Positions 1-8,596 of a DNA stretch of 8,652 nt are shown here, piece by piece. The first letter of the stretch is position 1; every line of letters begins with the position of its first letter. The notes beneath the pieces are model-generated. The model saw nothing but the letters and a program-made list of their open reading frames with translations, was not told the DNA's origin and ran no database searches. A program made the position numbers and the translations under genes. Source of the DNA: a virus (Duplodnaviria; Heunggongvirae; Uroviricota; Caudoviricetes); IMG/VR virus record IMGVR_UViG_648276657_000002, positions 1-8,652 of that record; one strand, 5' to 3'.

Positions 1-30
1 AAAAAAAAAAAAACCCCCGGGGGGGGGGGG
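1..30. repeat. Homopolymer block A13-C5-G12 at the window edge; likely an assembly, tailing or engineered-junction artifact rather than native phage sequence
   Basis: Direct reading: 13 A, 5 C and 12 G in succession. On the minus strand this reads C12-G5-T13 directly after the stop of the 56..286 gene. Confidence 0.5.
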
Positions 31-55
31 TTCTACAGAGGGTTGTAGCTGGATA

Positions 56-3610: not shown

Positions 3611-3859
3611 ATGAAAGGTGCATTAGGTAAGAAGGAACTCCTGGCGGTGGTGCCACTGTCATGGAGCACTATCGACCGCATGGAGCGCACAGGGGAATTT
3701 CCTAAGCGCTGGTATATCACTGACAAACGCTGCGCATGGAACCGTGATGAAGTTGAGCGTTGGCTTGATGAACGTCAGGCAGCAAGCCCGGCAGAGTTCC
3801 AGGGTAAAAAGCCTCCTGTTCAGCAACGTGTATATCGTCCTGTGAGCAACGCTGCATGA
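3611..3859 (+). CDS. AlpA-family phage regulatory protein (excisionase-like winged HTH)
   Basis: 82-aa ORF; KKELLAVVPLSWSTIDRMERTGEFPKRWYITDKRCAWNRDEVERWLDER matches the AlpA/Xis-type pattern (compare LPEV..LTGLSRSTIYRL...G.FP.P..LG.R...W...EV..W); AGAGAGG RBS upstream. Confidence 0.7.
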   Translation: MKGALGKKELLAVVPLSWSTIDRMERTGEFPKRWYITDKRCAWNRDEVERWLDERQAASPAEFQGKKPPVQQRVYRPVSNAA

Positions 3860-4016
3860 GTGTGCTGCTAAGGCACTGGAGCAAATGGTCAGGATGGTAC
3901 TTATTCCTGGCCTCTGTTTCAGCATGGCTTTATCTGCTGGCATTAATTTTCAGAGAGGGTTGGATTAAGTGAGAAAGTTAAGCCGACTTGAAAAATATCA
4001 CATGAACAAGGTTTCA

Positions 4017-4268
4017 ATGCGCAGTCCGTCAAAGATTGTCGCCGTTACTCCTGCGGCGATAGAGATCGAAAAACGCGCGATTGAAAGAGAGAAAAAAGGG
4101 CAGTTCCGCATTGCCGCCCACCTTTGGCTTCAGTGTATGGATGTTGCTTCTGGTGATGTTGAGCGTGCAAGGATCGCGGTTCGCAGGGACCAATGTATCA
4201 CAAAAGGTAACGGCCTTCGCCGTGGCGACTATAGCGGTATAGGATGTTGCGGGGTAGTTTATGACTAA
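4017..4268 (+). CDS. PerC/ANR-like small transcriptional regulator candidate; the track ORF starts at GTG 3969, and the true start is uncertain (ATG 4002 or 4017)
   Basis: The segment EKKGQFRIAAHLWLQCMDVASGDVERARIAVRRDQC resembles the PerC/Pch pattern (G.WRRAA.RW.DV ... RR..C), recalled from memory and not searched. An AAGG motif lies 7 nt before ATG 4017. Confidence 0.45.
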   Translation: MRSPSKIVAVTPAAIEIEKRAIEREKKGQFRIAAHLWLQCMDVASGDVERARIAVRRDQCITKGNGLRRGDYSGIGCCGVVYD

Positions 4269-4911
4269 GAAATACACACTAATCTATGCAGATCCACCCT
4301 GGGTATACCGGGACAAAGCCGCAGATGGTAATCGCGGTGCCGGTTTTAAATATCCGGTTATGAGTGTGATGGATATCTGCCGCCTTCCTGTGTGGGATTT
4401 GGCCGATGAAAACTGTCTGTTGGCAATGTGGTGGGTGCCAACACAACCACTCGAAGCGCTAAAAGTTGTTGAAGCCTGGGGATTCCGTCTGATGACCATG
4501 AAGGGCTTCACGTGGATAAAATGTGGTAGTCGACAACCAGATAAACTGGTTATGGGTATGGGACACATGACTCGCGCCAATAGTGAAGATTGCCTGTTTG
4601 CAGTAAAGGGAAAACTACCTCCGCGCATTAATGCAGGGATCGTTCAGTCATTTACCGCACCGCGGCTTGAGCATTCAAGAAAACCAGATGTCGTTCGTGA
4701 AAAACTTGTGCAATTGTTAGGCGATGTTTCTCGCATTGAACTGTTCGCCCGCCAGTCGTCTCATGGCTTCGATGTTTGGGGTAATCAGTGCAAAGACCCG
4801 GCGGTGCAACTACACCCAGGATACGCGTTGGATATTGGCGGATTAACAAATGCATTCAGCAATTCTCCGCTTTCACCAACAGACAACCAAGGCCGGGAGC
4901 GTGCAGCATGA
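4261..4911 (+). CDS. MT-A70-family DNA N6-adenine methyltransferase (orphan phage methyltransferase)
   Basis: 216-aa ORF with the DPPW catalytic motif in context IYADPPWVY near the N-terminus. The start overlaps the upstream stop by 8 nt, and the stop TGA overlaps the next ATG. Confidence 0.8.
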
Positions 4912-5567
4912 ACCTATATCAACGCATCAATGGCGCTGACTGGTGCAATATCTTCGTCGTCGGCGATCTGCATGGGTGCTACACGCTGCTGATGAACGAA
5001 CTCGACAAAGTTTCATTCGACCCGGCGCGCGATTTGCTTATTTCCGTTGGTGACCTTGTTGACCGCGGCGCTGAAAACGTCGAATGCCTAGATTTGATTA
5101 CTATGCCGTGGTTCCGAGCTGTTCGTGGCAACCATGAGCAGATGATGCTGGATGCACTGGTCAACGGCGGAAATTTCGGACATTGGATGTCAAACGGCGG
5201 TGGATGGTGGCACCAACTTGATTCTGAGCAGGATGTGCAACTCAAATACCTTCTGCCAAAGATTACCAACCTCCCGATGATTATCGAACTGGTTACCGGC
5301 AATAAGAAGGTCGTCATCTGCCACGCAGACTACCCGCACAACGAATACGCATTCAATAAGCCAGTACCAGAAGAAATGGTGATATGGAATCGTGAGCGGG
5401 TTAGCGACGCGCAGGACGGTATTGTCTCGGAGATAACCGGTGCCGATTTGTTCATCTTCGGTCATACGCCAGCACATCACCCACTGGTGTATGCAAACCA
5501 GATGTACATCGACACAGGGGCAGTGTTCTGCGGAAATCTGACGCTTACCAAAGTCCAAGAAAGATAG
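4908..5567 (+). CDS. Lambda-type Ser/Thr protein phosphatase (calcineurin-like metallophosphatase, PrpA/PrpB / lambda ORF221 family)
   Basis: Metallophosphatase motifs GDLHG, GDLVDRG and GNHE, with an N-terminus ([12 protein letters not shown]) resembling E. coli PrpA. Start placed at the ATG at 4908 (ATGA overlap with the methyltransferase stop) rather than the track start at 4788. Confidence 0.85.
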
Positions 5568-5569
5568 AA

Positions 5570-6742
5570 TTATTTATTACTGTCTTCCATCCACTTCTCA
5601 AACTTCGACGGGGAGAACGGAATCAGATCCGTATGCTCCCCGTTAATCCAGGAATCAATCATATCGGCCCACTGCTGCAACATGTAGGCGCGCTGTCTGG
5701 CGTATTCCGCTTTGTTATATACGGCGCGCACACCTTTCTGCTCATGTGCCAGAGCCTTTTCAATCCAGTCTGAAGGATAACCAGCCTCATGCAACAACGT
5801 ACTGGCTGTACGGCGCATATCGTGTACGGTGAAGTCCTGAATATGCTCACCATCTTCATTTATTATTTTCACCGTTCTGTCGATCAGAGAGTTCAGCGCG
5901 GCATTAGATAATGGCTTCCGGAAGTTGTAACGACCAGGAACCAGATATTCACTTCCACCAGCGCACATCTGCAACCCGACCAATATATCCTGTGCCTGTT
6001 TAGGCAGGTAAATAACGTGCGCCCGGCTTCCCTTCATGCGGTCTGAAGGAATTGTCCATGTCCATTTTTTAAAATCTATTTCGTCCCACGTTGCATTGGT
6101 GAATTCGCCTTTACGAACCATAGTGATAAGCACCAGCTTTAAAGCCATTTTCATAGTACCCATAGCACCAATGGCATCCAGCGTGCGGAAGAACAGGCCA
6201 ATTTCTTCTGGTGTCAGTGTTCGCTCTCGTGGTTTAAATATGGCGATAGACGAAGGTTTAATGTCAGCCGCAGGATTAAATAAACCATGACCACGGTCAT
6301 TGGCGTGACGGTATACGCTGCTGATGATCTCCCTGGCCTGTACTGCTGTTGCACGGCCACCGCGTTCGACAATCCGGTCACACAAATCACGAACCATCGA
6401 TGTGGTAATTTCAGCCATCATTTTGTTGCCAAGAACCGGAAGTATGTCACGGTCGATCACCGCCTGTTTCATTGCGCGGGTACTGTCAGCCAGGATGACG
6501 TGTTTCATATAACTGTCGGTATGTACCGCAAACGTCTCGGCACCACGAATCTTTTTGATACCGTCACGTTTAGCCGCGGCCGGTGACTGGCCTGCTTTAA
6601 GCAGTTTCTTTGCAGCAATCAGTTCTTCCCGCGCTTCTGCCAGGCTGATACCGTCACGCCCATACTGCCCTATTACCAGTGTTTCGCGGCGACCGTTGAT
6701 ACGGTAGTCATAGCGAAACGAGACCGTGCCTGACGTAAGCAC
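5570..6742 (-). CDS. P4-like tyrosine integrase; the reading frame continues upstream to 6805 and is interrupted by an in-frame TAA (6806..6808) inside the conserved N-terminal motif, so it may be a pseudogene or an N-terminally truncated product
   Basis: 390-aa ORF from GTG. Arm-binding region (GLYVAVLTSGTVSFRYDYRINGRRETLVIGQYGRDGISLAEARE) and catalytic region (HDMRRTASTLL ... VYNKAEY) match tyrosine recombinases. Upstream in frame: GTG-L-T-D-T-K-stop-K-T-L-K-P-Q-D-K-L-Y-K-V-S-D-R-D-G-L-Y, the canonical LTDT..K..KP.DK.Y start of P4-like integrases. Confidence 0.85.
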   Translation of the reverse strand: MLTSGTVSFRYDYRINGRRETLVIGQYGRDGISLAEAREELIAAKKLLKAGQSPAAAKRDGIKKIRGAETFAVHTDSYMKHVILADSTRAMKQAVIDRDILPVLGNKMMAEITTSMVRDLCDRIVERGGRATAVQAREIISSVYRHANDRGHGLFNPAADIKPSSIAIFKPRERTLTPEEIGLFFRTLDAIGAMGTMKMALKLVLITMVRKGEFTNATWDEIDFKKWTWTIPSDRMKGSRAHVIYLPKQAQDILVGLQMCAGGSEYLVPGRYNFRKPLSNAALNSLIDRTVKIINEDGEHIQDFTVHDMRRTASTLLHEAGYPSDWIEKALAHEQKGVRAVYNKAEYARQRAYMLQQWADMIDSWINGEHTDLIPFSPSKFEKWMEDSNK

Positions 6743-6853
6743 AGCTACATACAGCCCGTCACGATCGGAGACCTTGTACAGTTTGTCCTGCGGCTTGAGG
6801 GTTTTTTATTTTGTATCGGTAAGCACAATTCACCCGTATAGAAACCATTTTCA

Positions 6854-6940: not shown

Positions 6941-6970
6941 AAAACAAAAACCCTCTGTAAAAACAGAGGG
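6941..6970 (-). terminator. Rho-independent terminator of guaA (stem CCCTCTG/CAGAGGG, then a T-rich run on the minus strand)
   Basis: Minus-strand read: CCCTCTG-TTTTTA-CAGAGGG followed by TTTTTGTTTT, about 50 nt downstream of the guaA stop. Confidence 0.75.
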
Positions 6971-7018
6971 TTAAATTAGTATCTGAATAGGAATGAGTTG
7001 CTATGAGTTAGCTGTTAA

Positions 7019-8596
7019 TCATTCCCACTCAATAGTCGCTGGCGGCTTGCCGCTGATGTCATACACCACGCGGGAAATACCGTTCACTTCATTGATAATA
7101 CGGTTGGAAACGCGGCCGAGGAAGTCGTACGGCAGATGTGCCCAGTGTGCGGTCATAAAGTCGATGGTTTCGACAGCACGCAGAGAGACAACCCAGTCAT
7201 ACTTACGACCATCGCCCATTACGCCAACGGAACGTACTGGCAGGAAGACGGTGAACGCCTGGCTGACTTTGTCGTACAGGTCCGCTTTACGCAGTTCTTC
7301 AATGAAGATGGCGTCAGCACGGCGCAGCAGGTCACAATACTCTTTCTTCACTTCTCCCAGAACACGAACGCCAAGGCCTGGTCCCGGGAACGGGTGACGG
7401 TACAACATGTCATACGGTAGGCCCAGCTCCAGACCAATCTTACGCACTTCGTCTTTGAACAGCTCTTTCAGCGGTTCAACCAGGCCCATCTTCATCTCTT
7501 TCGGCAGGCCACCCACGTTGTGGTGAGATTTGATGACGTGTGCTTTACCGGTTGCAGAAGCAGCAGATTCGATAACGTCAGGGTAGATGGTGCCCTGCGC
7601 CAGCCACTTCACGTCTTCCAGTTTCAGCGCTTCTTCATCGAATACTTCAACGAAAACGCGACCGATAATTTTACGTTTTGCTTCCGGATCGTTTTCGCCA
7701 GCCAGCGCTGACAAGAAGCGATCTTCTGCCGGTACGTGAACAATGTTCAGACCAAAGTGATCGCCAAACATATCCAGAACCTGCTCTGCTTCGTTGAGAC
7801 GCAGCAGGCCGTTGTCGACGAATACGCAAGTCAGGTTTTTACCGATAGCGCGGTGCAACAGCATTGCGGTAACGGAGGAATCCACGCCACCAGAGAGGCC
7901 GAGGATGACTTTATCGTCGCCCACTTGCTCGCGGATGCGGGCTACAGCGTCGTCGATAATTTTCGCTGGCGTCCACAGGGCTTCACACTGGCAGATATCA
8001 CGCACAAAACGCTCCAGCATGCGCATACCCTGGCGGGTGTGAGTCACTTCCGGGTGGAACTGTACGCCATAGAAGCGTTTTTCTTCGTTGGCCATGATGG
8101 CAAACGGGCAGCTTTCGGTGCTGGCTACGGTGACGAAGTCGGACGGGATAGCGGTAACTTTATCGCCGTGGCTCATCCAGACGTCCAGCAGCGGTTTACC
8201 ATCTGCGGTCAGCGCATCTTCGATACCGCGAACCAGTGCGCTGTCGTTTACGACTTCAACCTGCGCGTAGCCAAATTCACGTTCGTTAGAGGCTTCAACG
8301 TGACCGCCCAACTGCATTGCCATGGTCTGCATGCCATAGCAAACGCCGAATACCGGTACGCCTGCTTCAAAGACATACTGCGGCGCACGCGGGCTGTTTT
8401 CTTCGGTGGTGCTTTCCGGGCCGCCGGAAAGAATAATGCCGCTTGGATTGAAGTCACGAATTTGTGCTTCTGTCACATCCCACGCCCACAGTTCGCAGTA
8501 AACACCCAGCTCACGCACGCGGCGCGCAACTAGTTGAGTGTACTGAGAACCGAAGTCCAGAATGAGGATGCGATGCTTATGAATGTTTTCCGTCAT
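7019..8596 (-). CDS. guaA: GMP synthase (glutamine-hydrolysing), full length
   Basis: 525-aa ORF beginning [40 protein letters not shown] and ending ATIEWE, recognised as enterobacterial GuaA; includes the class I glutamine amidotransferase domain and the SGGVDSS ATP-pyrophosphatase motif. Confidence 0.97.

Follow-up and report, generated by a model that had tools for sequence, protein, structure and literature searches.

The 8,652 nucleotides analyzed here (the window) coincide exactly with a single contig, with N gaps on either side, of scaffold GG774226.1 in the 2010 draft genome of Escherichia coli MS 185-1 (GCA_000164575.1). The window runs from the early-left region of a prophage through the integrase gene, int, and across the junction with the host chromosome into guaA. 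Its features are as follows.

1..31: tail of homopolymer junk (A13 C5 G12...) at this end of the contig; artefactual sequence
3611..3859, plus strand: gene for an AlpA-family protein of 82 aa (Pfam PF05930; RefSeq names)
5570..6826, minus strand: int frame of a phiV10-type prophage, 418 codons plus stop, interrupted at codon 7
5570..6742, minus strand: residual ORF of 390 aa from GTG 6742, holding only positions 29-81 of the arm-domain profile
6799..6808, minus strand: homopolymer tract T1-A6-C3, which is T2-A6-C2 in relatives; its boundaries are 6807 and 6801
6806..6808, minus strand: in-frame TAA at codon 7; TTA (Leu) in all relatives
6949..6972, minus strand: phage-borne rho-independent terminator, now behind guaA (terminator scan; annotated in phiV10)
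7017..7033, minus strand: att core ATTGAGTGGGAATGATT, covering the final four codons of guaA with its stop codon, plus TT; the chromosome/prophage junction
7019..8596, minus strand: intact guaA (GMP synthase, 525 aa)

The interrupted gene encodes a P4-type tyrosine integrase, and the prophage is a temperate podophage of the phiV10/epsilon15-like group (Uetakevirus). Pfam assigns Arm-DNA-bind_3, Phage_int_M, and Phage_integrase to the full-length protein. The arm-type DNA-binding domain (PF13356) spans residues 2-87 of the 418 aa and profile positions 1-81 (E = 4e-20), and the core-binding and catalytic domains are also present (PF22022, E = 5e-12; PF00589, E = 6e-19). The residues R238, H335-x-x-R338, H361, and Y370, found by motif, are by inspection the presumptive catalytic residues. 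The preliminary description had called the gene a P4-like integrase, and both the domain order (PF13356, then PF22022 or PF14659, then PF00589) and the LTD.K N-terminus fit that identity. P4-like and CP4-57-like integrases (cd00801 INT_P4; PDB 3ju0 and 3jtz) share with the window gene this domain order, the N-terminal motif LTD.K(I/L/V)(K/R)..KP, and an AlpA-family partner gene close by. However, they target a tRNA or tmRNA gene, whereas the target of the window integrase is the 3′ end of the protein-coding guaA. Sequence similarity to lambda Int is weak and falls in the catalytic domain (E about 3e-4).

The integrase, when reconstructed, aligns with those of isolated phages from residue 1 at 99-100% coverage, with identities of 99.0% to phiV10 (PhiV10p31, YP_512286.1), 99.8% to ZX5, and 99.3% to PAS61. 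TL-2011b and the O157 typing phages 9 and 10 provide further matches, and the amino acid identity to this set of Uetakevirus phages, all relatives of epsilon15, is 99-99.8%. The window departs from the phiV10 group by the TAA at codon 7 and Thr for Asn at codon 9, and its C-terminus is the 418-aa variant where phiV10 has the 416-aa one. Of 5,426 complete E. coli genomes, about 550 have a homologous coding sequence of 1,257 nt directly after guaA; RefSeq labels it a tyrosine-type recombinase/integrase and starts it at the GTG equivalent to window 6826. Such 1,257-nt RefSeq coding sequences also occupy the homologous place in three of the compared loci (L001, L002, and L003). The 120 closest protein homologs are all 416-418 aa long and start (M/V)LTDTKLK(N/K), and the solved N-domains 3ju0 and 3jtz align with the integrase from “LTD.K” at residue 2. 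The preliminary description had asked whether functional homologs naturally start at the downstream GTG; these 120 homologs and the isolated, viable phages start at the upstream one.

The 17-bp core ATTGAGTGGGAATGATT is identical in the phiV10 attP, about 190 bp upstream of the int GTG, and phiV10 also has the same terminator in this upstream region. The same 17 bp have been published as the attP/attB core for phiV10, epsilon15, and vB_EcoP_ZX5 (PMC9782041). The prophage had initially been assigned a site downstream of guaA, but the attachment site is the guaA 3′ end itself, which is also the integration site of the phiV10 group. For vB_EcoP_ZX5, integration at the guaA 3′ end has been shown experimentally and spontaneous induction has been described, and integration and excision activity is reported for its integrase, the 99.8% match to the reconstructed window protein (PMC9782041). 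The gene, the att site, and the phage group are all already described, and nothing about the system is new.

Two side observations concern this site. The stem of the phage terminator (CCCTCTGT...ACAGAGGG) is nearly the same as that of the native K-12 guaA terminator (L022), while the flanks and loop differ; judged by sequence, the phage seems to bring its own near-copy of the host guaA terminator that the prophage displaces. Separately, the genome of E. coli A_5 (CP195580.1; also hit H25) carries two prophage copies, one of which places the same integrase and prophage next to yaiA/aroM (L008, 6768..7000). The junction at this second site keeps only GTGGGAATGATT, or 12 of the 17 core bases. The two copies, one at a secondary site, indicate that the integrase is active in nature and able to use a secondary att site.

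Convergent with int, the plus strand at 3611..5567 encodes the AlpA-family protein, a PerC-family regulator, an MT-A70 adenine methyltransferase, and a calcineurin-like Ser/Thr phosphatase, and all four of these early-left genes are intact. The AlpA-family protein is probably the excisionase or regulator partner of the integrase. The methyltransferase and AlpA alleles are rare, each occurring on 7-9 contigs. The remainder of the window matches the early-left region of isolated phages, and the gene set of RecT, methyltransferase, PerC, and repressor is common to the window and the phiV10 group. A mosaic breakpoint lies inside the last int codons (window about 5570..5590) and yields two C-terminal variants: a 418-aa form (...KWMEDSNK) followed by the Ser/Thr phosphatase gene, as in the window, and a 416-aa form (...KWMAGE) with a DUF1382 gene behind it, the arrangement of phiV10 and of the complete genome AHB29 (NZ_OZ547246.1). 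The identity of the window to AHB29 ends at 5587. We found no decay elsewhere in the window: every other ORF is intact and identical to the corresponding ORF of relatives, which speaks against the earlier suggestion of a domesticated prophage.

On the minus strand, int begins GTG (6826..6824) CTT ACC GAT ACA AAA TAA (6808..6806) AAA ACC CTC AAG CCG CAG GAC AAA CTG TAC, and the stop is flanked by an A4 run on one side and an A6 run on the other. It is in register with the residual ORF from GTG 6742 (6826 - 6742 = 84, or 28 codons), in which PF13356 is matched with E = 1.8e-10. The sequence therefore reads as first described, with a TAA between two A-runs breaking the frame of a P4-like integrase at codon 7, and the longest residual ORF does restart at GTG 6742, lacking profile positions 1-28 of the arm-binding domain. 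The replacement codon that had been expected, ATA or AAA, proved wrong, as alignment to relatives shows that the codon of this lineage is TTA (Leu). Also overlooked was another change, located 6 nt downstream of the stop. Relatives carry ACA AAA TTA AAA AAC CTC (T K L K N L), compared with ACA AAA TAA AAA ACC CTC in the window; the two differences are at 6807 (TTA to TAA) and 6801 (AAC to ACC, Asn9 to Thr). Equivalently, TT has lost one T, CC has gained one C, and the A6 run has moved by 1 base. The stop allele is represented by ACAAAATAAAAAACCCTC (window 6797..6814) and by TAAAAAACCC, and the sense form for the site is TTAAAAAACC. An uninterrupted ORF of 416-418 codons from a GTG 190 bp off the core is absent from the deposited MS 185-1 sequence, in which the 390-aa product is entered as EFJ57341.1.

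To recover close relatives, we used as a handle the rare allele of the neighboring phosphatase gene (window 4908..5567), which occurs on 13 contigs. This yielded four independent Logan assemblies, to which AHB29 was added. The aligned lengths and the differences from the window are as follows.

SRR6106432: 8,631 nt aligned (8,621 outside the tail); 6801, 6807, and the junk tail at 22..31
ERR10497911: 7,984 nt; 6801, 6807, and three 1-nt gaps (window 4092, 4452, and 4478)
ERR13652546: 6,272 nt; 6801 and 6807 only
ERR13652759: 5,893 nt; 6801 and 6807 only
AHB29: 3,066 nt (int, intergenic region, and guaA); 6801 and 6807 only

Positions 6801 and 6807 are the only substitutions in the true sequence of the window relative to these five, all of which encode an intact integrase of 416-418 aa. 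The three gaps in ERR10497911 (L019) are shared by no other assembly covering those positions and are probably errors of that assembly rather than of the window; two of the three are in homopolymers (A6 to A5 and G4 to G3), and together they split the MT-A70 gene. Among the 13 contigs with the rare phosphatase allele, the MS 185-1 draft is the only one set apart. Five of the 13 were displayed as separate places; int encodes 390 aa in MS 185-1 and 418 aa in each of the four others. The eight contigs left were placed in one group with L017, as their neighboring proteins are mostly the same.

Wider searches returned the same contrast. The Leu7/Asn9 form (P0121), otherwise identical to the window protein, is present on about 890 contigs. 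The 390-aa product occurs on a single contig in a search of about 15 billion proteins, and the truncated protein is on no Logan contig. The Leu7/Thr9 form is absent from the protein collection, and Thr at position 9 is found in none of the 120 closest protein homologs. The 76-mer of the window is present in 0 of 537 complete E. coli genomes, where the best match is 74/76, no complete E. coli genome is more than 98.8% identical to the whole window, and a search for a second sequencing of MS 185-1 found none. Metagenome contigs gave 49 matches to the wild-type 28-mer and 0 to the mutant 28-mer; neither is present in the species-representative genomes. In the second-site copy of L008 (around 7020..7030), a synonymous AAA to AAG change breaks up the A6 run at codons 8-9 (TTAAAGAAC), indicating that the tract is polymorphic between prophage copies. 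One might speculate that two prophage copies in MS 185-1, if present and merged during assembly, could disturb the consensus at this tract.

The spacing of the two changes points to a common origin. If the two differences were independent, the second would land no more than 6 nt from the first with a probability of 0.0014. Because the window holds only six 6-nt runs, two differences spaced 6 nt apart would frame one of these runs as a register shift with a probability of 1.5e-4. On these probabilities, we rejected two independent point mutations and concluded that the two changes came from one event. Templated (quasi-palindrome) conversion from the nearby terminator was also considered; GAGGGTTTTTGTTTTTA matches the site GAGGGTTTTTTATTTTG at 14 of 17 positions, but conversion would not give the observed product.

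The quality of the draft bears directly on the nature of that event. Window 22..31 has GGGGGGGGGTTCT in place of the true GGGTGGCGG-TCT, and the ends of both neighboring contigs are likewise junk homopolymers (L016, 7990..8043 and 16753..16790: poly-C/poly-T; C12 G5 T13). These junk end strings of the MS 185-1 contigs were not found in relatives. The chromosomal side of MS 185-1, about 8 kb, has no private difference besides the contig-end junk. A difference at L016 position 4052 of the same draft (GGGGT to GGGTT) was dropped as evidence of error, being a real polymorphism shared with L011. A literature search for the assembly accession or the sequencing technology of the strain returned nothing.

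We consider a homopolymer-associated consensus error, made in the 2010 draft assembly of E. coli MS 185-1, to be the most likely source of the stop, with a probability of roughly 0.7. The preliminary description had left a real inactivating mutation and a homopolymer sequencing error as plausible alternatives; the private pair of changes bracketing the A6 run, in a junk-ended draft, favors the error over the mutation. This reading is preferred because the two changes are the only internal differences in 8.6 kb, because they have the geometry of a register shift, and because they are, among the sequences searched, unique to one in a draft with junk ends. The cause would then lie in base calling or consensus building and not in a cellular mutation. 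Under this model, the A6 run at codons 7-9 would have been set one base out of register, with T2-A6-C2 written as T1-A6-C3. This single slip would convert TTA AAA AAC (Leu-Lys-Asn) to TAA AAA ACC (stop-Lys-Thr) and leave the downstream frame unchanged. Such a length-neutral shift arises when a consensus is built from reads in which the run length was miscalled. Homopolymer register shifts are typical of sequencing and consensus errors, whereas slippage in the cell is expected to lengthen or shorten the A6 run itself, and a double slip at 2-nt runs would be rare.

Several observations count against an artefact. The classic pyrosequencing error more often alters the length of an A6 run and causes a frameshift rather than a compensated shift, and natural prophage integrases often carry nonsense mutations. 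A distance of 1.8 kb separates the stop from the nearest contig end, placing it outside the visibly bad tails, and the consensus is otherwise accurate, with no other private difference across the 8.6 kb of the window and about 8 kb of chromosome.

These points leave some room for a real, strain-private, and very recent lesion at the A6 run that put TAA at int codon 7 in MS 185-1, either by one complex mutation or by two adjacent slippage or dislocation events. We regard this as unlikely, though it is the strongest competitor of the consensus error. The stop is, after all, present in the deposited sequence, and the consensus around it is otherwise free of error over about 17 kb. Thr at position 9 is tolerated in the family (“IRTLKP” in 3jtz), run-boundary substitutions that copy the adjacent base are an established signature of dislocation mutagenesis, and knockout of the integrase is a common first step of prophage fixation. 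However, a real lesion requires that the sole private change in the same 17 kb be either a pair of rare events at 2-nt runs or a multi-nucleotide mutation, itself rare, and the lesion appears in no other assembly. It would also have left no secondary decay anywhere in the window, on a contig that demonstrably has homopolymer artefacts, and no Shine-Dalgarno-like sequence precedes GTG 6742 by inspection.

A functional or harmless stop, through programmed read-through or recoding at the TAA or a natural start at GTG 6742, has in its favor only that the 390-aa ORF keeps complete core-binding and catalytic domains, and it is effectively refuted, as the 120 closest homologs, the roughly 550 RefSeq annotations, and the isolated-phage integrases begin at the upstream GTG (MLTDTKLKN), the alignments to the Pfam arm domain and the PDB N-domains start at residue 2, codon 7 is a stop in no relative, and no recoding signal is evident in the sequence.

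The consensus error that we favor carries a caution for prophage annotation: an early stop at a homopolymer in an old draft, absent from otherwise identical relatives, is not to be taken for domestication unless reads support it. The comparison also provides a simple triage recipe, in which a rare neighboring allele serves as a handle to otherwise identical independent assemblies, and one then asks whether the lesion is the sole difference and whether it has the geometry of a homopolymer shift.

Were the stop real, full-length Int would no longer be made, and the most to be expected would be weak reinitiation at GTG 6742, yielding a protein of 390 aa that lacks the first 28 residues of the arm-binding domain. 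Lambda Int without its N-domain (C65-type fragments) provides the basis for a functional analogy. These fragments keep the core-binding and catalytic domains, as the GTG 6742 product would, with a crippled arm domain; the whole N-domain is gone from the C65-type fragments, whereas the window product would lose only the first 28 residues. By this analogy, the clipped Int could bind and cleave core sites but would not assemble the arm-dependent intasome. Excision would then fail, locking an otherwise intact phiV10-like prophage at guaA, and prophage fixation would have been caught at its very first step. The biological weight of the stop is nevertheless small: if real, it is a routine pseudogene, and if an error, it is no feature at all.
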